Of a stretch of DNA of 64,000 nucleotides, positions 910 through 52,199 are shown piece by piece. The notes beneath the pieces are model-generated. The model was not told the DNA's origin and did not search any database. It saw only the letters and a list, made by a program, of their open reading frames with translations. Positions within the stretch are counted from its first letter, which is position 1, and each line of letters opens with the position of its first letter. Source of the stretch: Lentimicrobiaceae bacterium (GTDB lineage Bacteria > Bacteroidota > Bacteroidia > Bacteroidales > JALOCA01); assembly GCA_023227965.1 (NCBI GenBank), contig JALOCA010000001.1:3490-67489 (forward strand). The letters run 5' to 3'. The position numbers were made by a program, and so were the translations under genes.

Positions 910-3354
910 CTATTGGTTGTTGTTTGCCGAGCGCAAAAATTTGAGTTTTTCTTCCAGCGTTTTCACTTCTTCCTTGGCTTTATTTATTTTTTTGTCAAAT
1001 TCTTCGCGGAGAATGTTCGCATTTTTAGAATTGGCAAGAAAACCGATATTGTTTTCCCAAAGCATGATTTCTTCCTGCAACTTACTTATTTTAGTAGCTA
1101 AGAAATTGCGTTCTTTGCTGATGATTTTGCCTGCATCGGGAGAATTTTTTACTGATTCAAAGCGATTTTTATAATTAAAACTGAATGCTTCACCTCCGCT
1201 TACCTTAAGTTTATCAAAATGTTTGTTGATTACAGTACGAAATTCATTTTGTAGACGATCTTTTTCTGCTAAAGGAACATAGCCAATTTCTGTCCATTGA
1301 CGTTGAAAATTTTTGAGGCTCTCAAAGTCAACATTCCGGTTGTCGCTGGGAACAAATTCCTGTACCTGTTTAATAAGTGCTTCTTTTAATTGCAGGTTCT
1401 GCTGTTCCATTTGGGTAACATTGGAAAAAAATGTAGTTTTATTGTTGAAAAACTCATCACATGCAGCACGGAAACGTTTCCATATTTTTTCAGAATTCTT
1501 TCGCGAAACCGGACCTATTTTTTTCCATTCTTTTTGCATGTTAATGAATTCGCGTGTAGTTTTATTCCATTCTGTATTCGATTTAATGGCTTCTGCCTGC
1601 ATGCACAGGTCGAGTTTCCGATTGTAATTTTCTATTTGTTGGTCTTTCAGCTTACTGTAAAATTCTTTTTTTGCCGAGAAGAAGTTTTCAAGACTTGTAC
1701 GGAACCGCAACCAGATTTCGTTGTTTTGTTTGATGGATGCGGGACCTATTGTTTTCCATATTTTTAGCAATTCATTAACCTGGTTAGTTTTTTCCTGCCA
1801 GGATTTGATAGATTTTATTTCTTCTGAAATCAGGGCTTCTGCCTTTTCGCAAAGAAGGGTTTTTGCAACAAGGTTGTTTTGCAGCTCATCTTGCATATTG
1901 ATATAAAAATCGCGGCGCCGTTCGTTAATTTTGTCGGAAACGGTTTTGAATCTTTCCCAGATTTCGTCTTTCTTGTCCTGAGGAACGGGTCCGATTTCTT
2001 TCCACTCTTCATGAAATTTTTGCAACTGTTTGAACGACCTGGCAATTGACACCTCAAGGAGCAATTCTTCTACTTTTTCGCAAAGAGCAATTTTATTTTC
2101 AAGGTTCTTTTTCAGATCAAGGTCTTTCAGTTCTTTATTGATCTTTACTTTATCAAAAAATTTCTCAACCAGGAAATGGTAATTCTGCCATAGTCCGTTG
2201 ATTTCGTTTTTTGGAACCATCCCGATTTGTTTCCAACGATCCTGAAGCAGTCGGAATTCATCGTAGGTTTTTTTCAGGGTTTCTTCCGAGTTAACGAGTG
2301 TTTTCAGTTCTTCCAGAATCTGATTTTTGGCTTCAAGGTTCAGGAGTTTCTGTTTTTCAAACTCTTCGTTATATTTTGATTTTTTTTCTTTGTATATATT
2401 GAAAGCAGCGTTGAATTGTTCGTCGGTCATGTCATCGGCAACGAATTCTTCTTTTTTACCTCCTTCGGCTAAAAATCTTTCTAAACGCTGTTGTTTTTCT
2501 TCTTTGGATATTTTTAGAAATGCAACCTTGATAAGGGCTACCTGACTTTTTATCACATTAACATCTCCTTCCTGAACAAGTTTTTGTAAAGAATTCAGTA
2601 GCTGTTCACGATTATACTCTTCAAAATTTTCTTCTGCAATGCTGATAATTTCGGTTTCATCTAATTCTTCTTCTACAGCTATTTCAGCAATAGGCGAAAG
2701 AGAAGAAGCACTGGGGTCGAAAGTAAGGTCGGGAAGATGGATTTCAAGTTCTTTGTCTGCAAGCTCTGCTTCGACTTCTACATCTGGAACCACTTCGCTG
2801 CCAGTATTTGGCTCCGGCGAAATAGCTTCTGCTTCTTCAGTAATTTTTTCATTTATTTCGGATTCATTTTCGGCAGCATGCTTTGTGTGCATTTCTTCGC
2901 TTATGGCAATTTCAGGTGCTATTTCCTGTCCGGGAGTAGGTTCGGGGGGAATATTTTCTTGTTGAACGGTTTCTGCCAACTCGTCTTTAGTTTCGGGTTG
3001 GATTTCCTGGGCAGTTTCAGCAATAAACTCTGCAGAGGTTTCTTCGCTTATAGCAATTTCAGGTGCTATTTCCTGTTCGGGTGCAGATTCGGGTTGAATG
3101 GTTTCAAGCTGAGAAGTTTCTGCTAATTCTTCTTTAGTTTCGGATTGGATTTCCTGGGCAGTTTCAGCAACAAACTCTGCAGAGGTTTCTTCGCTTATAG
3201 CAATTTCAGGTGCTATTTCCTGTTCGGGCGCAGATTCGGGTTGAATGGTTTCAAGCTGAGAAGTTTCTGCTAATTCTTCTTTTGCTTCGGATTGGATTTC
3301 CTGGGTTGTTTCAGGTTCCTGGGGAGTGCGGGTCAGTTCGTCTTTTGTTTCCAT
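910..3354 (-). CDS. DUF349 domain-containing protein with acidic tandem-repeat N-terminus
   Basis: The C-terminal ~560 aa consist of repeated helical modules carrying the DUF349-type signature W..IG.......(I/L)W.RF......F (EIWERFKTVSDKINERRRDFY, EIWLRFRTSLENFFSAKKEFY, KIWKRFRAACDEFFNNK). The N-terminal ~200 aa are E/Q/P/T-rich repeats. Confidence 0.8.
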   Translation of the reverse strand: METKDELTRTPQEPETTQEIQSEAKEELAETSQLETIQPESAPEQEIAPEIAISEETSAEFVAETAQEIQSETKEELAETSQLETIQPESAPEQEIAPEIAISEETSAEFIAETAQEIQPETKDELAETVQQENIPPEPTPGQEIAPEIAISEEMHTKHAAENESEINEKITEEAEAISPEPNTGSEVVPDVEVEAELADKELEIHLPDLTFDPSASSLSPIAEIAVEEELDETEIISIAEENFEEYNREQLLNSLQKLVQEGDVNVIKSQVALIKVAFLKISKEEKQQRLERFLAEGGKKEEFVADDMTDEQFNAAFNIYKEKKSKYNEEFEKQKLLNLEAKNQILEELKTLVNSEETLKKTYDEFRLLQDRWKQIGMVPKNEINGLWQNYHFLVEKFFDKVKINKELKDLDLKKNLENKIALCEKVEELLLEVSIARSFKQLQKFHEEWKEIGPVPQDKKDEIWERFKTVSDKINERRRDFYINMQDELQNNLVAKTLLCEKAEALISEEIKSIKSWQEKTNQVNELLKIWKTIGPASIKQNNEIWLRFRTSLENFFSAKKEFYSKLKDQQIENYNRKLDLCMQAEAIKSNTEWNKTTREFINMQKEWKKIGPVSRKNSEKIWKRFRAACDEFFNNKTTFFSNVTQMEQQNLQLKEALIKQVQEFVPSDNRNVDFESLKNFQRQWTEIGYVPLAEKDRLQNEFRTVINKHFDKLKVSGGEAFSFNYKNRFESVKNSPDAGKIISKERNFLATKISKLQEEIMLWENNIGFLANSKNANILREEFDKKINKAKEEVKTLEEKLKFLRSANNNQ
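2890..3309 (-). repeat. 147-bp (49-codon) in-frame tandem repeat, ~3 copies, inside the DUF349 gene
   Basis: TGCTAATTCTTC... recurs at 3268 and 3121, and as the diverged TGCCAACTCGTC at 2974, an exact 147-bp spacing. The protein unit is ETSQLETIQPESAPEQEIAPEIAISEETSAEF(V/I)AETAQEIQ(S/P)ETK(E/D)ELA, present twice nearly identically plus a diverged third copy. Confidence 0.9.
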
Positions 3355-24480: not shown

Positions 24481-24956
24481 TTTAAATCCATTTTACATCA
24501 TCTTGGATATATTTAGCCTTATCTTGAATGGATTTTGGCTCATCTTGAATTCATTTTGAAACATTTTGAATAGGTTTTGGATGTTTATAAAGACATAGTG
24601 GCAGATTTCAAATAGGTTTTGGAATAAGTGAATAGATATTAAAACATTTCAAATTGATTTTAAAACTGTTCAAATAGGTTTTAAAATTTGTCAATTGATT
24701 TTAGAACTGTTCAAATTGATTTTGGAATTTGTCAATAGTATTTAGAACATTTTGAATAGATTTAAGATGATTTTGAATCAATTTTAGAACATCTGAATAG
24801 GTTTTGGATGTTCACAAAGACATAGTGGCAGATTTGAAATAGATTTTAGAACATTTTGAATGGATTTAGCTTTATCTTAAATGGATTTGTGCCCATTTTA
24901 AATGGATTTTGCCATTTTCTGAATAGAAATTATTTTTTTCTGAATCCGATATGGGA
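24481..24956. repeat. Degenerate tandem array, ~23 units of 19-21 bp (mean ~20.7 bp), consensus ~TTTTGAATAGATTTTAGAACA
   Basis: Hand-parsed unit starts are 24481, 24501, 24522, 24543, 24564, 24585, 24606, 24627, 24647, 24668, 24689, 24709, 24730, 24750, 24771, 24792, 24812, 24833, 24854, 24875, 24896, 24915 and 24936. Each unit has two T3-4 tracts about 10 bp apart. The track lists no ORF of 60 aa or more on either strand between 24436 and 25320. Confidence 0.85.
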
Positions 24957-25422: not shown

Positions 25423-26239
25423 TATTTGATTGAAAAGGAACCTCCACCGTGAGACCTTTTTTTTCAGTGGTAGAAAATACGTTTTTAGCAACTTAACAGA
25501 ATTGGTAGAAATGCCCTGAAACATAGATAGCGGAAGCTGAAAAACTGGGACAATAACTTAAACCCGGATCCGTATTTAAACTTTGATAATTTGAAGTATC
25601 GTATCCTTATGGTGTAATAATTGGAAGATATTGCCAATATGATGGCACAGAAAGTTCTTCAGGCGGCACTGCTTTTTCCCAATGTAGTAAAGATGGCCTC
25701 TAAACAAGGTGTTCTGAGAGCCAAGGAAGTGTACGACAATCTCAAGCATCGTTTCTCAGATAGTAAACTTTCAGAAATTATTACCAACAATACGGAAACC
25801 AAGTAGTTGAGAAGGATAGTTTTTTAATGGGTCAATTAATGGTAATGAGGCAGTGGGCTTGGCTCTTTACTTTTTACAATATAACCATCTTATTTTTATA
25901 ACTATCCTGTCTCATTTTATATCTTATAAAGTCTATGCCTGTAGGACAAAGTTTTTTCACTATGCCTGCTTTGCATCTTTAATACAAAACATTTGCCCTA
26001 ACAGGATAAATTCATCCGCCAGGCAAGTTAAAAACCTTCAGGGTAGGTATTGTTGGCCTGATTTACCTGTATTCATAATAACATGAAAAATTATTCACAA
26101 AATTTCATGCAATACACAACTGGTCTTAATACATATTAAATTTTAACTTTGTACTTGGATTTTTCTACCCTAGAAGATTAGAATAACTGCCATAATTTAT
26201 TACTATACACTGGTTAATAAAAACTTATAACTTTATTAT

Positions 26240-45067: not shown

Positions 45068-48000
45068 ATGAAAAAAAAATCCCTTTTCTTGCTCACAATT
45101 TTTTTTAGTAGTTCTATACTTTTTGCACAACCAGAAACATTTCCTCCTCTTACGCCAATATCCGCTGCTGATTTGGCAAGATTAAAAAGCATTCCGGAAC
45201 TCCCGGTTACGGATTTTGCTTCCCGTTCAATCCTGTTGCCTGCCATGGTTGATAATTCTACTCAGCCTTATTTTCGTCCTTTGTTTCAGCAGGTAGGTCT
45301 CGAATGTGGGCAGGCTTCAAGTATTGGACTTGGTTTTACTTATGAAATAGATAATGCAAGAAACGTTGCTGCAAATACCACCGCTAACCAATATCCCACA
45401 CATTTTGCCTATAATTTCATCAATAATGGCACCGACAACGGAGTTAGTTACTTCGAAACATTCGAAATTCTGAAACGATGCGGAACTCCTAATGTAGCGG
45501 ATTACGGTGGAATGTCGTACGGGGGTCCTTCGAGATGGATAAGTGGTTATGCAAAGTATTACAATGGTATGCAAAACCGCATTACTGATGTTTATTCGAT
45601 AAAAGTAAATACTTACGAAGGGCTTGAAACGCTAAAAAGCTGGATTTATAACCATCTTGGCAATTCAACAGTTGGCGGAGTGGCAAATTTTTATACTCAA
45701 TATATGAATCCAACGCTTCAATTGCCCGCAGGAACCCCGGAATCCGGAAAATATGTCATTACATCATGGGGTGGAAGCCCTAATCATGGATTGACTATTG
45801 TTGGCTATAACGATTCCATACGTTGGGACTATAATAACGACGGCTTATACACAAACAATATTGATATCAATGGCGATGGTATTGTCAACCTGAAAGACTG
45901 CGAAATTGGCGGAGTAAAAATTGCAAATACCTACGGAGGAATCAATAACTGGGGAAACACCGGTTTCTGCTATATGATGTATAAAACTTTTGCCGAAAAC
46001 CTAGGTAACGGTGGTATCTGGAATAATATTGTTACCATAATTTACGCAAAACCTGTATGTACCCCAAAACTCACCTATAAAATTACGTTGAAGCATACTT
46101 CACGCACAAAGATTAAAGTATCAGCCGGAGTATCTACAGATATTTCAGTAACAGAACCCGATGCAATACTTAACCTTCCCATTTTCGACTTTCAGGGAGG
46201 AGATAAATACATGCAGGGAGGTACTACTGAAGCTGACAAAACCTTAGAGTTTGGCCTTGATGCCACACCCCTCCTGAGTGAAATTGCCTCCGGACAACCG
46301 GCTAAATTTTTCCTTATGGTGCAGGAAGCCGACCCTGATAACTTAGCTACCGGTCAGATTATTGATTGGCAAATTATAGATTATAATAATGGAGGCAATG
46401 CAATAGCCTGTAATTCTATCCCGGCTTTTGTTGAGAATGGAGTAACTACTGCAACAATAAACACAACTCTTAATTTTAATCTTCCGGTAATTACAAATAC
46501 ATCCCTCCCTGTTGCAAACATCAATGAGCCTTATAGTGTTCAAATGTATGTTAGCGGCGGAACAGCCCCTTACAAGTGGAAAAATGCCCATACATATTCC
46601 GAAGATTATTCTACTGTTACATTTCCAATGGTTTCGGATGCTCATTTAACACCGACCAATACTTCTTATGGTTATGCTGCCAAAGAAATTCCATTTTCAT
46701 TTCCTTTTTATGGGAAAAACTATAACAAAGTGTATATGCACGTGGATGGTTACCTGATGTTCGAAGAAAATGATTTCCCATGGACTTTCATAATTTACGA
46801 AAAAACTTTCTTTAAAAATACACGGCATATTGCTCCATACATGTGCAAACCTATCATGACTTCAAATTCGGGTGCTGAAGGATTTTGGTATTCGGGTTGT
46901 GCTGACAGTGTAACTTTTAGATGGAAAGAATATCTGTACAATGCCCAGGGAAGTACAAACCTGAATTATGCTGTATCTCTGTTTCCTTCCGGCAAAATTG
47001 TGTTTTATTACGGAACTGTGCAGGGGCAAAGCTGGGTGAAATGGAACGCAGGAATATCAAATGGGGATGGGGTGAATTTCCATTTTGCCGCCATCACCGA
47101 TTCACTTTCACAACCCACAGAAAATACTAAAATTGAATTTGAACCTTCGCCATTTCCCATTGAAATGAATATAAGTGAAAATGGCATTTTCAGTGGAACG
47201 CCTGTAAATGGTTACCAAAACTATCCTGTAAAGTTTTATGTAAACGATAATAACTTCCTATACGATATTAAAGAGCTTAATTTTGCAACCAAAGGGGTTA
47301 AAATTAATTATATTGTTCATGCTGGAAATGACAGCATCATTGATTTTGGTGAAAGCGTAACTCTTGACGCCGTTTTGCAGAACATAGGAACTGATGCGAT
47401 AAATAATTTATCTCTTAGCGTAAGCAATACCGGTAGTTTTATAAATCTAACAGACAGTACGCAGAATATTGGTAACATGACCTCGGGGCAGATTATCACT
47501 ATTCCGAATGCTATTGCCTTTAATGTTTCGCAGGAAATACCCGATTCCTATGTGGTCAGGCTTCACAATAAGCTAACCTGCACCGGCGATTTATTTGAAA
47601 ACAACTCTTCATTTATTGCGCATGCTCCTGTTCTCGAAGTTGCCGGCTTTACAGTTTACGATGGGAATAACGGAATACTTCAGCCTGGAGAAACTGCAAC
47701 TGTTGGTGTTTTGATTAAAAATAGTGGAGGCAGCAGGGCTAATTACGTGGAAGGTATTCTTTTATCATACGATCCTTTTTTCCAGGTTACACAACCTGCG
47801 GCATCTACAGGGTTTATTCTTCCTGATTCTAGTGTGTTATTTTATTTCGGAATTCATGTTTTGCCATCATGCCCTGTTACGCATCTTGCATTCTGCAATC
47901 TAAATCTTTTTGCCGATCAGAATTACAGCAATGCTGACAGTGTTTTCTTCAATGTAGGAGGAATTATTGAAGACTACGAAACCGGGAATTTTCAGAAATA

Positions 48001-49951
48001 TCCCTGGCGGTTTTTTGGGGAAACTGCATGGACAATTAATCAGGCATCTCCGTTCGAGGGAGATTATTGTGCAAAATCGGGTACGGTTACCCATAACCAG
48101 CAATCGGCAATGTACCTGCAAAAGGAAGTGCTTTCAGCTTCCCTTATCAGTTTTTACTGCAAAGTTTCCTCTGAACCCAACTACGATTTCCTGATTTTTT
48201 ATATTGATGGGCAGGAACAGGGACGGTGGGCTGGTGAAATGGATTGGACACTAAAATCATACCCTGTTAAAGCCGGATTACATACATTTTTATGGACTTA
48301 TAAAAAAGATGTTTCTCAAAATGTCGGACAGGATTGTGCATGGCTTGATTACATTAACTTTCCGGTTCTTTCAGACTATTTACTGGTAGTGAATGCCGGA
48401 AACGATATTACCCGCTGCAGTAATGATCCTGTTGAATTAAATGGTATGGTGATGGGAACAAGCGATTTCCTTTGGACTACCACAGGCGATGGAACTTTCA
48501 GTAATGCCCAGATTCTAAATACTATTTATACGCCCGGCAGTCAGGACATGCAAAACGGGGGAGCATCCCTTGTGCTTGTAGGAAATAAACCACTTTGTCC
48601 CACGACTTCCGATACGCTGACATTGAGTGCCCACTATGCTCCGGGAGTGTTTGCAGGTACTAACGACGCCATCTGTGCAAGCGAAGTGTTTATTAACAAT
48701 TCTTCTACTGCGTCCGCTTACGAATCTCTGATGTGGACTACTTCCGGTGACGGGCATTTTGATAATCCGCAGCAGTTGCATCCTATTTACGTTCCGGGAA
48801 CCGGAGATATTTCTTTAGGGCAGGTTACACTTAGTGTTGCCGCTTCGGGTTATGGAAACTGCCCAGATACTACCGATGCTTTACTGCTTTATATTTACCC
48901 CAATATTGCAGTAGTGGCAGGAGAAGATCAAACTATTTCGTATGGATCAAGTACGCTTTTAACAAGCATCGTTTCAGGTGGAAGTGGTAATTTTACCTAT
49001 AATTGGCAACCTGCGGATCAGCTTGTTGATAATACTGTAGCCCAGCCTGTAACTATCAATCTTACTTCTTCGATTCAATTTACGGTTAATGTTACAGATA
49101 TTTTTTCAGGCTGTATTTCTTCGGATGCCGTAATTGTATATGTTTCCGGTGGTCCTTTGTCGGTTAATACCAACGCACAACCCGACACAGTTTGTTTGGG
49201 TAGCAGCAGTCAACTTAACGCACTTGCCGGTGGAGGCACAGGCAATTATTCCTGCATATGGACTTCTGTACCGCAGGGATTTACTTCAACACTTTTTAAC
49301 CCTGTAGTTACTCCCCTGCAAACAACCATTTACACCGCCGAAATTAACGACGGTAGTACCACGCTTACCTCTTCGGTAACTGTTACTGTTTCTGAAGCTC
49401 CAGGAATACCTTATATCCCGGCAGGTCCCATACAAGTGGATATATATTATACTCCCACAAGTATATACACAACATATTCTGTAGCAAATGCTGAAAACTA
49501 TGTTTGGCAGCTTTCACCCGAACAGGCAGGGATACTCATGGTACGGGATACTCTTTGCGAAGTTACATGGGATAATTATTTTACCGGTCAAGCTATGCTT
49601 AAAGTTAGTACTGCAAACCAATGTGGTAACAGCAATTGGTCTGAAGTATTACTTATTAATACAGAAAATTCAGTAGGGATTTTTCCCCATGTTGTTTCTG
49701 ATGAGTGGTTGGTATTTCCTAACCCTACGCAGGGACAGATATTTATTAGTACCACCTCTGCTTCAGTCGGCAGCGTTTTGTATCGTCTTACAGATTTGCG
49801 GGGTATCACTCTACAACACGGGTACTTTACTTCTCCCAAAAAAGGGGATATATTTACCCTTGATGCAACAGATTTACCCGGCGGTTTGTACCTGCTATAC
49901 CTTCGGGACAATAAAACGGAAAGGCATTTCTCTATATTGATTTCCCAATAA
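45068..49951 (+). CDS. Giant T9SS-secreted protein (1627 aa) with N-terminal papain-like (C1-type) peptidase-like domain
   Basis: The signal peptide is MKKKSLFLLTIFFSSSILFAQ. A candidate Cys/His/Asn triad context is QQVGLECGQASS, SPNHGLTIVGYND and IANTYGGINNWGNTGFCYM (compare QGxCGSCWAF, HAVxxVGY, NSWGxxWG). Long beta-rich repeats follow, and the C-terminus FPNPTQGQIFIS...GGLYLLYLRD... is a T9SS CTD. Confidence 0.65.
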   Translation: MKKKSLFLLTIFFSSSILFAQPETFPPLTPISAADLARLKSIPELPVTDFASRSILLPAMVDNSTQPYFRPLFQQVGLECGQASSIGLGFTYEIDNARNVAANTTANQYPTHFAYNFINNGTDNGVSYFETFEILKRCGTPNVADYGGMSYGGPSRWISGYAKYYNGMQNRITDVYSIKVNTYEGLETLKSWIYNHLGNSTVGGVANFYTQYMNPTLQLPAGTPESGKYVITSWGGSPNHGLTIVGYNDSIRWDYNNDGLYTNNIDINGDGIVNLKDCEIGGVKIANTYGGINNWGNTGFCYMMYKTFAENLGNGGIWNNIVTIIYAKPVCTPKLTYKITLKHTSRTKIKVSAGVSTDISVTEPDAILNLPIFDFQGGDKYMQGGTTEADKTLEFGLDATPLLSEIASGQPAKFFLMVQEADPDNLATGQIIDWQIIDYNNGGNAIACNSIPAFVENGVTTATINTTLNFNLPVITNTSLPVANINEPYSVQMYVSGGTAPYKWKNAHTYSEDYSTVTFPMVSDAHLTPTNTSYGYAAKEIPFSFPFYGKNYNKVYMHVDGYLMFEENDFPWTFIIYEKTFFKNTRHIAPYMCKPIMTSNSGAEGFWYSGCADSVTFRWKEYLYNAQGSTNLNYAVSLFPSGKIVFYYGTVQGQSWVKWNAGISNGDGVNFHFAAITDSLSQPTENTKIEFEPSPFPIEMNISENGIFSGTPVNGYQNYPVKFYVNDNNFLYDIKELNFATKGVKINYIVHAGNDSIIDFGESVTLDAVLQNIGTDAINNLSLSVSNTGSFINLTDSTQNIGNMTSGQIITIPNAIAFNVSQEIPDSYVVRLHNKLTCTGDLFENNSSFIAHAPVLEVAGFTVYDGNNGILQPGETATVGVLIKNSGGSRANYVEGILLSYDPFFQVTQPAASTGFILPDSSVLFYFGIHVLPSCPVTHLAFCNLNLFADQNYSNADSVFFNVGGIIEDYETGNFQKYPWRFFGETAWTINQASPFEGDYCAKSGTVTHNQQSAMYLQKEVLSASLISFYCKVSSEPNYDFLIFYIDGQEQGRWAGEMDWTLKSYPVKAGLHTFLWTYKKDVSQNVGQDCAWLDYINFPVLSDYLLVVNAGNDITRCSNDPVELNGMVMGTSDFLWTTTGDGTFSNAQILNTIYTPGSQDMQNGGASLVLVGNKPLCPTTSDTLTLSAHYAPGVFAGTNDAICASEVFINNSSTASAYESLMWTTSGDGHFDNPQQLHPIYVPGTGDISLGQVTLSVAASGYGNCPDTTDALLLYIYPNIAVVAGEDQTISYGSSTLLTSIVSGGSGNFTYNWQPADQLVDNTVAQPVTINLTSSIQFTVNVTDIFSGCISSDAVIVYVSGGPLSVNTNAQPDTVCLGSSSQLNALAGGGTGNYSCIWTSVPQGFTSTLFNPVVTPLQTTIYTAEINDGSTTLTSSVTVTVSEAPGIPYIPAGPIQVDIYYTPTSIYTTYSVANAENYVWQLSPEQAGILMVRDTLCEVTWDNYFTGQAMLKVSTANQCGNSNWSEVLLINTENSVGIFPHVVSDEWLVFPNPTQGQIFISTTSASVGSVLYRLTDLRGITLQHGYFTSPKKGDIFTLDATDLPGGLYLLYLRDNKTERHFSILISQ

Positions 49952-50883: not shown

Positions 50884-51138
50884 TGATACCTGTTGGTACC
50901 TTCTGATTTTGCCACGACCACTATTCTTGGTTGACCATGCGTATGCATGGCAAAAGACGATTAATTTTTTCAGAAGCAAACAATATAGGGTAAAAAACCC
51001 GTAAGAAAATAAGCTGAGATAGTTTTATATTTTCATACCGGATAAAATTACTTTTATCAATAAAAAGCCTGAGTTTTCAGATTGCTATATAAATTTTTGG
51101 TATGTATTTTTACTTTTTCGAAGAAATCTTTTTATATA

Positions 51139-51257
51139 ATAATCTCCGGCTTCACTAAGATAATTTCCATCATTTCGGAAATGATTTCCGTTATTTCGGA
51201 GGTAGTTTCCGGCTTTTCGGAAATAGCTTCCGCCACTTCGGAGATAATTTCCGCCAT
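51139..51257. repeat. Exactly phased 21-bp tandem array (5.5 units) of alternating TTCCG / CGGAA half-sites
   Basis: The units start at 51139, 51160, 51181, 51202, 51223 and 51244: ATAATCTCCGGCTTCACTAAG / ATAATTTCCATCATTTCGGAA / ATGATTTCCGTTATTTCGGAG / GTAGTTTCCGGCTTTTCGGAA / ATAGCTTCCGCCACTTCGGAG / ATAATTTCCGCCAT. This includes the perfect 15-bp palindrome CGGAAATGATTTCCG at 51175-51189. Confidence 0.9.
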
Positions 51258-51476
51258 AAAAATATTAAACATAAAAGATGGATAAATTCAAAAATATGAT
51301 TTTTGCTTATTCAAAAATAATCTTTTTGCCCATTTGTATAAACCAGGACTTTTGTAAAAAATGCCTGAAACTATATTTCTTGTTTACTTTTTTAAATTAA
51401 TTCTTGTTTATTCAAAATAAATTTTTTATACCTTTGTTTTAGAATTATTTTAGTAACCTTTAAACACAAAAAAACT

Positions 51477-52199
51477 ATGGAAAAGCCAGATGAAATTACA
51501 CCTGATTTTAACATTCCGGCAGATGAAATGCTGCTCGAATCACAAACGATGATTGATTTTTTTATAGAAGATCAGAAATTGTTTACTGATAAAGTACCCG
51601 ACCTTCAATCTCCTTTCGAAACAGATTGGCAAAATGCAATTAATGATGCAAGACAGGCAATAAAAGATGATGACTATCTTGACGTTCAGCAGGGAATGAC
51701 CAATGAAATTGAAACACTAATGGCAGAAGCCTGTAACAGATTGCAGACACTCTATTTTTATGTTGACCGTGCATTTCCGGGAAATAAGGTCGTAAATGAG
51801 ATATTCGGACACGACCGTTATGAAAAAGCCCGCAAATCACCGCTATCAATGTTCGATTTACTTATAAAAGCATACAATGCAGCAAACGACTCTAAATACA
51901 AGAGCAAGCTCATAGAAAAAGGATTGAAGCCAGATGGTATAGAAACGTTAAAAACTACTTCCGATACATTATATTCCAAATATCAGAAACGCGATAAATA
52001 CATAAGCGACCGTGGAAGTATTACACAGAACCGTACAATTTTGCTTAATAAAGTATGGGCTTTCAATGCAAGCGTAAGCGATGCATCAAAACTTGTTTTC
52101 CAGGAAAACTATGCAAAGATGCAGCAATACCTGTTGTATGGCGGCAAAAAACAATCAGGCGAAGAAACCAAAAATACTATTCCGGAACAAAATCAATAA
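51477..52199 (+). CDS. Hypothetical protein (240 aa, predicted helical, no signal peptide)
   Basis: A clean ORF with coding-like composition, about 220 bp downstream of the 21-bp array. I recognise no motif. Confidence 0.55.
   Translation: MEKPDEITPDFNIPADEMLLESQTMIDFFIEDQKLFTDKVPDLQSPFETDWQNAINDARQAIKDDDYLDVQQGMTNEIETLMAEACNRLQTLYFYVDRAFPGNKVVNEIFGHDRYEKARKSPLSMFDLLIKAYNAANDSKYKSKLIEKGLKPDGIETLKTTSDTLYSKYQKRDKYISDRGSITQNRTILLNKVWAFNASVSDASKLVFQENYAKMQQYLLYGGKKQSGEETKNTIPEQNQ

Follow-up and report, generated by a model that had tools for sequence, protein, structure and literature searches.

A non-coding array of exact 21-bp units and its apparent pairing with an uncharacterised gene family in Bacteroidota

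Introduction

Where proteins polymerise on DNA, as they do at iterons, centromeres and operator arrays, the telltale mark is a tandem array whose units span whole helical turns. An array of this kind, built of 21-bp units, lies in an intergenic gap of a Lentimicrobiaceae genome (GenBank assembly GCA_023227965.1), upstream of a gene for a 240-aa protein whose family, though it counts thousands of members, is unannotated, matches no known fold and has no function assigned to it. The locus raises the question of what such an array does beside such a gene, and whether it is coding sequence, a product of repeat generation, an RNA, or a DNA element at which a protein acts on the neighbouring gene. 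The analysis covers the window, that is, the whole stretch of 64,000 nucleotides in which the array was noticed, together with related loci in the same genome and across several lineages of Bacteroidota.

Results

Structure of the array and its surroundings

The array runs without indels through 5.5 units of exactly 21 bp, which read, in register from 51139, ATAATCTCCGGCTTCACTAAG / ATAATTTCCATCATTTCGGAA / ATGATTTCCGTTATTTCGGAG / GTAGTTTCCGGCTTTTCGGAA / ATAGCTTCCGCCACTTCGGAG / ATAATTTCCGCCAT..., and along which the half-sites TTCCG and (T)TCGGA alternate every 10-11 bp. An earlier note on this DNA, made from the letters alone, had described this arrangement, and it is borne out by the sequence and by TRF, which reports period 21 with 4.7 copies and 0% indels over 51160-51257 and also calls a period of 42. 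The note had given every unit the form with TTCGGA; four units do have it, as TTCCG-N4-TTCGGA, but the first (51139-51159) is degenerate, with TCCGG present and TTCGGA absent, and the last is truncated. The perfect 7-1-7 palindrome that it placed at 51175-51189 exists but lies at 51176-51190 (Table 1). With up to one mismatch, TTCCG-N4-TTCGGA occurs four times in phase within the array and six times in the whole window, against 0.97 expected, and none of 100 shuffles reaches six. The exact motif is found three times in phase at the array and elsewhere in the 3.33-Mb genome only as scattered single copies. The 501 bp upstream of the 240-aa gene, array included, are identical in three independent metagenome assemblies from other samples, which indicates that this copy is not hypervariable; no copy-number instability was seen among them. 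The window holds a second 21-bp array, at 24485-24910, which is unrelated to that at 51139-51257.

The intergenic gap (50884-51476, 593 bp) follows a DUF2279 gene and includes an AT-rich spacer, and 220 bp separate the end of the array from the ATG at 51477, in agreement with the first estimates of ~220 bp and ~590 bp. The 240-aa gene is probably transcribed from the box TACCTTTG, which stands 172 bp beyond the array on the gene side and is predicted from its match to the Bacteroidota -7 pattern TAnnTTTG. In the alignment of close paralogs the box TATACCTTTG is invariant, and in seven loci a strict TAnnTTTG box is found between array and gene, 42-50 nt from the ATG; the distance from array to box varies among loci (172, 156, 137, 117, 88 and 71 bp). 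On the minus strand, the two 23-bp direct repeats between array and promoter carry two TATTTTTG -7-like boxes (51319 and 51296) that are directed into the array. No counterparts of these repeats were seen in the paralogs, and among the loci checked only the window and one other (L004) have minus-strand -7-like boxes pointing into the array.

Table 1. Features of the array, its intergenic gap and the adjacent gene (positions in the window)
Feature	Position	Strand	Basis or remark
Tandem array, 5.5 units of exactly 21 bp	51139..51257	n/a	Sequence and TRF
Perfect 7-1-7 palindrome CGGAAAT-G-ATTTCCG, spanning a unit junction	51176..51190	n/a	Single occurrence genome-wide
Central dyad TTCCGGCTTTTCGGA, about which the whole array folds quasi-palindromically	51207..51221	n/a	Folding and sequence
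ATG micro-ORF through the array, 46 aa (41 aa from the second ATG, 51257)	51132..51272	-	ORF list; judged not a gene
TTG-initiated ORF through the array, 67 aa	51082..51285	+	ORF list; judged an artefact
Two 23-bp direct repeats, each with the palindrome CAAAAAT-N3-ATTTTTG	51286..51331	n/a	Repeat search
Bacteroidota-type -7 promoter box TACCTTTG (TAnnTTTG), predicted	51429..51436	+	Between array and gene; TTG ~25 nt upstream of the box
Gene for a 240-aa all-helical protein of a large uncharacterised family	51477..52199	+	Profile search and structure model

The adjacent gene and its protein family

The 240-aa protein, with a pI of 5.0, is acidic; it lacks a signal peptide and is encoded by a monocistronic gene. 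Among 1.84 billion proteins, a profile built from nine members recovers 2627 cluster representatives (E <= 1e-3), with lengths that cluster near 230, 310 and 400 aa; the longer members bear CarboxypepD_reg or Fn3-like C-terminal domains, and the recorded names of family members are all "hypothetical protein". Searches of the family against Pfam, NCBIfam, PHROGs, PADLOC and PDB sequences returned no matches. The predicted structure of a family protein (pLDDT 89.3) is helical throughout, and a Foldseek search of this model against PDB and BFVD gave E 0.06 at best. No recognisable DNA-binding domain was found in the window protein by domain and fold searches, nor any Rep, ParA or ParB domain in the family. 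The genes sit singly between ordinary chromosomal genes, eight of them in the window's own genome, and no neighbour genes conserved around the family loci were found. When the window protein is compared by eye with a 70%-identical paralog, the differences are evenly spread and form no obvious specificity patch.

Arrays of close paralogs and orphan copies

Close paralogs were taken from the window's own genome and from G001, a Bacteroidales MAG and the one further genome of this family. When the window array is used as a DNA query, a match is found upstream of the closest paralog, the 70%-identical one on contig C59, where 5.5 units of GCTTCCGCCRTTACGATAATR are present; the G001 ortholog of this paralog has 6.5 units of the same sequence, a difference of one unit between genera, and in a 43%-identical G001 paralog the unit is GCTTTCCGSCATTTAGTGTAA. 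In all three the units are exactly 21 bp and the array stands 190-230 bp before the ATG. These arrays end on the gene side in the palindrome TTTCCG-N4-CGGAAA and align in phase with the window array, with TTCCG invariant and its CGGAA partner not. The closest paralogous arrays thus retain just the TTCCGCC half and one terminal palindrome, and this loss of the partner marks the alternating dyads as special to the window copy.

Four TTCCGCC-type arrays occur in the window's genome, two of them adjoining family genes and two of them orphans, one in a convergent gap (C22) and the other 230 bp before cutC (C42). A further orphan, in G001 (G001:C3), follows directly on the C-terminal end of an IS5-like transposase. 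The orphan arrays C22 and C42 and the gene-linked array on C59 have a tail of ~70 nt in common, with no evident terminal inverted repeats (TIRs). Synteny with G001, compared for cassette boundaries, is not conserved.

Linkage of arrays and genes across the family

The survey covered ~40 loci of thousands, from several Bacteroidota lineages and including a phylum-wide sample, and its statistics ignore kinship among loci. In the 700 nt upstream of the gene, a lag-21 self-match of at least 50/84 is reached by 25 of 36 distinct family members, or by 22 of 32 when loci ascertained through the DNA pattern are left aside, and 21 is the best self-similarity lag in 29 of the 36. The same threshold is reached by two of 34 downstream flanks, whose best lags are scattered, and, for windows of 700 nt placed at random in the genome, by 0.67%. 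Of four further members from metagenomes, three have an array, and each of the eight family genes in the window's own genome is preceded, within ~1 kb, by a 20/21-bp array. A protein-blind scan for TTCCGSCRTT in 21-bp phase over 185,579 species' genomes gave at least 80 loci; most of the matches listed are Gly-rich coding repeats in other phyla, and in at least four loci among the matches listed the array adjoins a homolog of the 240-aa protein (in Sphingobacteriales, Ignavibacteriae, Kapaibacterium and a Bacteroidetes MAG).

The arrays sit 50-600 bp upstream of a gene for a ~230-aa all-helical protein, in an orientation that varies between loci, and the linkage spans paralogs down to ~25% identity and extends across classes or phyla. 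Paralogs that lack the TTCCG core have 21-bp arrays of GTGGTACGGTGTTTCGACGAT (~14 copies), GGCTATAGATGATGCCGATCA (~11), GGCAACAACCACCTTCGAAAC (~11) and GTTTTATAGTACTCTGTAGTC (~11), and a further family unit of exactly 21 bp reads CCTCAAAAGCTTTACGGACTC. The period is conserved and the unit sequence diverges between paralogs; the half-site palindrome is a local peculiarity and the period the general feature. Many arrays are mirrored, with two arms of 21-bp units that converge on a central palindrome (L072, L136, L131, L005), and the window array is a compact version of this theme. Family genes in Bacteroidota are apparently almost always paired with an exact 21-bp upstream array of their own, a rule that appears to be undescribed, and on this ground array and gene probably work together. 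The earlier proposal that the array is helically phased and tied to the downstream gene is thereby upheld, in that paralogs and distant homologs carry upstream 21-bp arrays. The accompanying proposal, that the alternating TTCCG/CGGAA dyads are sites of a dimeric regulator, fared less well: the dyads are not conserved and distant arrays have unrelated units, and the dyads therefore say little for such a regulator. No link between the array and the local Rrf2, LuxR or REC genes came to light.

A universal binding core of the TTCCG/CGGAA or TTCCGCC type was considered and rejected; it is present in only 6-8 of the 25 protein-ascertained arrays, and most of these come from a single clade. Among the minisatellites of the genome, period 21 predominates by a wide margin, with 16 arrays of at least 3.5 copies and others at 42/43, 63 and 84 bp, and the many other 21-bp minisatellites imply that a general repeat-generating process contributes.

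Coding capacity of the arrays

Twenty-one base pairs equal seven codons, and the array could on that account be the gene of a small heptad-repeat protein, either an acidic minus-strand peptide of 46 or 41 aa (MAEIISEV...) or a Gly/Tyr/Arg/Asn-rich peptide in the N-G-G frame, which runs across TTCCGCC. All frames were translated in the window array and in C59, C22, C42, L002, L004, L014, L062, L072 and L082. Both reading frames reported by the earlier note exist, the minus-strand ORF with ATG (41 aa from 51257, 46 aa from 51272) and the 67-aa ORF with TTG, and the former has a -7-like box ~20 nt upstream. In the N-G-G frame, ORFs with ATG are present at C59 (85 aa), C22 (44 aa, MMMVSVGGRHHRNGG...) and C42 (57 aa), and C59 and C22 are separated by one in-frame indel of 18 nt. 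Against these points, the N-G-G frame contains a stop and lacks a start codon in the window, has no start in L002 or the G001 ortholog, and is closed in every unit of L062 (Ignavibacteriae) and in alternate units of L082 (Kapaibacterium). The minus-strand micro-ORF does not hold up as a gene, being unconserved, with a TAA that closes its frame in L004 and L014, two related arrays; the 67-aa frame is likewise closed in related arrays and has no family match, as befits the artefact it had been taken for.

Five arrays are closed in all six frames, with at least five stops per frame in L131 and L136 and at least one per frame in L069, L145 and L150, and a longer conserved coding gene that would enclose the array was looked for in relatives and not found. 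The variable positions inside the window units are contiguous (11-14) and do not fall on every third base, which speaks against coding, and the array peptides have no family matches (TIGR04260, E 0.94). Heptad coding, including the N-G-G frame and its GGSYYRN-type His/Tyr/Arg-rich peptides, was rejected, as no frame is consistently open with a start, and a repeat protein of this kind is very improbable. The array is non-coding, and its period reflects two helical turns and not seven codons, since several arrays have stops in six frames.

Curvature and folding of the arrays

Curvature was estimated with a wedge model, whose results are approximate. In this model the twist per unit is 705-729 degrees, near 720; repeating any 21-mer yields a mean coherent bend of ~15-20 degrees per unit, and repeating the window unit one of ~23 degrees. 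Selection for intrinsic curvature was rejected, as within this approximate wedge model the arrays are no more bent than shuffled-unit repeats (mean percentile 0.53; 13 of 27 above the median).

For the window array taken as RNA, the fold of the plus strand comes to -39 kcal/mol (z -4.4) and that of the minus strand to z -2.0; taken as single-stranded DNA, the array has z -2.5. The other arrays give z between -2 and -5 on both strands. Strand-specific RNA structure was also rejected: the plus strand is favoured in the window only, the other arrays are unbiased, and there is no Rfam family, the best match, to the miRNA model MIR7526, scoring 21.4 bits against a gathering score of 110.

Discussion

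Proposed role of the array

The two-turn period, the private and homogenised units, the palindromic ends, the independence of orientation and distance and the deep linkage all point to an element at the DNA level that is read in helical turns. Our tentative preference is that the array serves as a helically phased docking platform for protein that would control its gene, possibly with the gene's own product bound to it. On this reading a non-coding element would accompany the genes of one family on their upstream side, with the window array as its local copy, and would consist of head-to-tail 21-bp units that often end in, or are mirrored around, a short palindrome from the unit core. A candidate protein would bind once per unit, or once per half-unit in the window copy, on one face of the helix, and could spread cooperatively along the array to set the activity of the downstream promoter. 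In the window copy the second half of the unit may have become an inverted copy of the core, so that dimers could bind head-to-head every 10.5 bp. Because unit sequences are private to each paralog, the candidate reader that calls for the fewest assumptions is the protein encoded next to the array, which would then be an autoregulator. The arrays that precede DUF6261 genes, described below, offer an independent parallel. Binding by any protein, the identity of the binder and the direction of the regulatory effect are what we infer from these comparisons.

Several observations sit poorly with a docking platform. The acidic character of the protein and the absence of a DNA-binding domain or fold match weaken the version in which it binds its own array, and the differences from the 70%-identical paralog are evenly spread, with no obvious specificity patch. 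The variable distance and orientation of the array relative to the promoter box do not suit a precisely positioned activator. Some arrays of this type have no family gene beside them (C22, C42, G001:C3), and the genome has many other 21-bp minisatellites. A wider version of the proposal, doubtful but conceivable, is that the 240-aa family constitutes a new class of array-reading proteins, all-helical and without HTH, in which each paralog would assemble on its own array with one protomer per two helical turns. The family would then be the 21-bp counterpart of the DUF6261 modules with their 42-bp arrays, and the two would jointly form a widespread and undescribed "private-code" protein-DNA system of Bacteroidota and Ignavibacteriota. 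Such a system might serve autoregulated contingency genes, or a nucleoid or segregation function.

Alternative explanations

The arrays could instead be selfish or neutral minisatellites of the BrickBuilt kind, with no dedicated role for the gene and with a linkage that arises from co-duplication of the gene and its flank. In this view Bacteroidales produce tandem repeats of 21-23 / 41-43 bp and disperse them through intergenic DNA. The dominance of period 21 in the genome, the second, unrelated 21-bp array in the window, the orphan TTCCGCC-type arrays and the ~70-nt tail common to orphan and gene-linked copies all agree with this explanation, and BrickBuilt, with its 23-nt bricks, is a published precedent (PMC4596501). 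It is nevertheless unlikely: the linkage persists to ~25% identity, where the units have been fully replaced and the period kept and where neutral drift should have erased the arrays; there is no BrickBuilt-type TIR near the array, and the copy number is unchanged among three assemblies. Rather less credit is due to a sequence-independent architectural DNA, in which coherent bends every 21.0 bp would engage a general nucleoid protein and act as an upstream insulator or silencer. Such a role would suit a strictly kept period with private sequences, a relation to the gene that is independent of orientation and distance, a modelled twist close to two full turns, and a coherent bend that any repeated 21-mer provides. 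It leaves the linkage to one family, the terminal palindromes and the mirrored arms unexplained, however, and the arrays do not exceed shuffled-unit repeats in bending.

An element that acts as RNA, through small hairpins, as a sponge or as a repeat-derived antitoxin like type III ToxI, CptI or TenpI, is improbable. The plus-strand fold of the window array, the two minus-strand boxes that point into it and the resemblance of tandem repeats directly before a single gene to type III toxin-antitoxin loci would favour it, but the conserved promoter box lies downstream of the array, no promoter into the arrays is general among loci, and the array may face either way with respect to the gene, depending on the locus. 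The other arrays fold without strand bias, as expected of DNA palindromes, no Rfam match reaches the gathering score, and the family matches no PADLOC model. Hardly credible at all is the idea that the arrays belong to an integrated or relic replicon, as its replication iterons or its partition centromere, and that the 240-aa protein is their Rep- or ParB/KfrA-like binder. The layout is of the right kind, with direct repeats of about two turns, a gene-proximal inverted core repeat, an AT-rich stretch and then the gene, yet there are eight copies per genome, as single genes amid ordinary chromosomal genes without conserved neighbours, and neither Rep, ParA or ParB domains, nor DnaA boxes in 50884-51476, nor PHROGs matches were found.

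Should the link between array and gene be functional, it would offer an approach to the 240-aa family and also to the puzzle of why 21/42-bp minisatellites are in excess in Bacteroidales genomes, and it would provide a second independent case, beside DUF6261, of one gene with one private array. If the arrays are merely selfish, their retention beside one gene family over deep divergence still needs explaining.

Comparison with known systems

The type III toxin-antitoxin loci (toxIN, cptIN, tenpIN) have repeats of 34-45 nt; a promoter upstream of the repeats drives both them and the toxin gene, and a terminator separates the two. They share with the present loci the tandem direct repeats immediately before a single protein gene, and they differ in that here the promoter box stands between array and gene, the orientation flips and PADLOC gives no match. 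Plasmid iterons, such as the seven contiguous 22-bp repeats of the R6K gamma ori, and repeat centromeres and operators, such as sopC of F, parC of pSK41 and the KfrA operators, adjoin the gene of the protein that reads them. The likeness lies in direct repeats of about two turns that adjoin a gene, an inverted core near the promoter and a repeat that is private to the replicon or, here, to the paralog. In contrast to these plasmid systems, the family loci are chromosomal, consist of a single gene, occur many times per genome and have no Rep/ParB/KfrA homology or DnaA boxes.

A literature search on 21-bp arrays in Bacteroidetes found nothing relevant beyond BrickBuilt, and the only published relative found for the array is this minisatellite/MITE of Porphyromonas gingivalis, described with MITEPgRS/464 by Klein et al. 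2015 (PMC4596501), which has no linkage to a gene family. BrickBuilt elements consist of 23-nt bricks (41 nt for PgRS), are always intergenic at 49-591 nt from genes, are multi-copy and have reported promoter activity; they have a leader and a tail with IS5-like TIRs of the GAGACCTTTGCA type, are confined to P. gingivalis and P. gulae, and stand beside unrelated genes (PMC4596501). Both kinds of array belong to Bacteroidales and are spacerless tandem repeats of about two turns, intergenic and multi-copy, with imperfect units of which one half is more variable and with a flanking non-repeat tail; the window array, with its spacerless 21-bp units in a 593-bp gap, has the spacerless and intergenic character of BrickBuilt. 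TIRs of the GAGACCTTTGCA type, allowing up to two mismatches, are absent within 25 kb of the array, and their window-wide counts are at chance. As to dispersal, the genome has its four TTCCGCC-type arrays, two gene-linked and two orphan, and the units across the family are unrelated in sequence. BrickBuilt is one sequence family, whereas the 21-bp arrays have locus-private units, an exact period and a tie to one protein family.

A counterpart in design is DUF6261 (PF19775), for which all eight genes checked in four genomes, one of them in the window's genome, have a 41/42-bp upstream array. As in the 240-aa family, a protein of ~240 aa that is all-helical, with a Pro/Glu/Thr-rich tail, has its own phased array that differs between paralogs. 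The DUF6261 arrays have a period of 41/42 bp and those of the 240-aa family one of 21 bp, to which TRF adds a super-period of 42 bp. None of nine members of the 240-aa family matches PF19775 at E up to 10, and hhalign gives a probability of 0.2%; as a control, the true DUF6261 gene of the window's genome scores E 1.2e-41 against the same model. Since there is neither a PF19775 match nor a higher profile-profile probability, the 240-aa family is apparently an independent, second protein family with the design of an array plus a gene, at half the DUF6261 period and, as far as sequence comparison indicates, not detectably related to it.

Tandem arrays in the window and its genome

Across the whole genome of the assembly, the commonest minisatellite period in the TRF results is by far 21, represented by 16 arrays that each contain 3.5 or more copies. 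Whole-number multiples of this length are also found, at 42/43 (five arrays) and at 63 and 84 (four arrays), and a further group of nine arrays has periods of 68-70 bp. The features discussed here are collected in the table.

Features in the window and on other contigs (C-numbers) of the same genome
Feature	Location	Strand	Details
147-bp tandem repeat	window 2892-3314		2.9 copies, 90% identity, TRF score 671
Second 21-bp array region	window 24485-24910		units AATAGATTTTAAAACTGTTCA and variants; super-periods 41/62 bp
T9SS papain-like giant, 1627 aa	window 45068-49951		just upstream of the locus of the array and 240-aa gene
Two 23-bp direct repeats	window 51286-51331		palindrome CAAAAAT-N3-ATTTTTG in each
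Paralog of the giant, 1506 aa	C6:409-4929		36% identity over 526 aa
Orphan TTCCGCC-type array	C22:3806-3940	-	
True DUF6261 gene	C25:5395-6159	-	PF19775, E 1.2e-41
42-bp array of this gene	C25:6260-6388		~110 bp upstream of gene
42-bp array	C33:141938-142159		5.3 copies; 195 bp before start of 305-aa protein gene
305-aa protein gene	C33:142354-143274		C-terminal domain CarboxypepD_reg
Orphan TTCCGCC-type array	C42:~25590-25730	-	

A 41/42-bp array lies upstream of all eight DUF6261 genes checked (genomes G000, G001, G002 and G011). The 305-aa protein on C33 has no Pfam match in its N-terminal part and no detectable kinship with DUF6261 or with the uncharacterised 240-aa family, and this locus may represent a third type of array-plus-gene pair. 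Within the window, the second 21-bp region is unrelated to the array at 51139-51257 and is not adjoined by a member of the 240-aa family, and the 147-bp repeat probably lies within a coding region.

Surroundings of the window array

Between the array and the 240-aa gene, the two direct repeats look like a pair of dimer operator sites. They can also be read on the minus strand as TATTTTTG -7-like boxes directed towards the array, and the pair is absent at the paralogous loci. On C6, the distance between the paralog of the giant protein and a further gene of the 240-aa family is ~7 kb. Two of the eight family loci in this genome show such a co-location, which may be due to chance.

Arrays without a family gene

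The 21-bp arrays of loci L049 (Hymenobacter MAG), L126 (Bacteroidia MAG) and L118 (Streptomyces venezuelae) share the TTCCGCC core and terminate in a palindrome, after which the unit recurs in inverted copies, with no homolog of the 240-aa family within these 8-kb loci. Because one of them is from Streptomyces, the sequences suggest that the mirrored design extends beyond Bacteroidota. Minus-strand translation of the orphan arrays on C22 and C42 yields ATG-initiated heptad peptides rich in His, Arg, Asn, Gly and Tyr (MMMVSVGGRHHRNGGSHHRNGG...; MIIISAGGKPHRNGRKLYRNGG...). These open reading frames are probably not genes; their peptides show weak similarity (E 0.94) to TIGR04260, the model of the GrrA/OscA cyclophane RiPP precursor.
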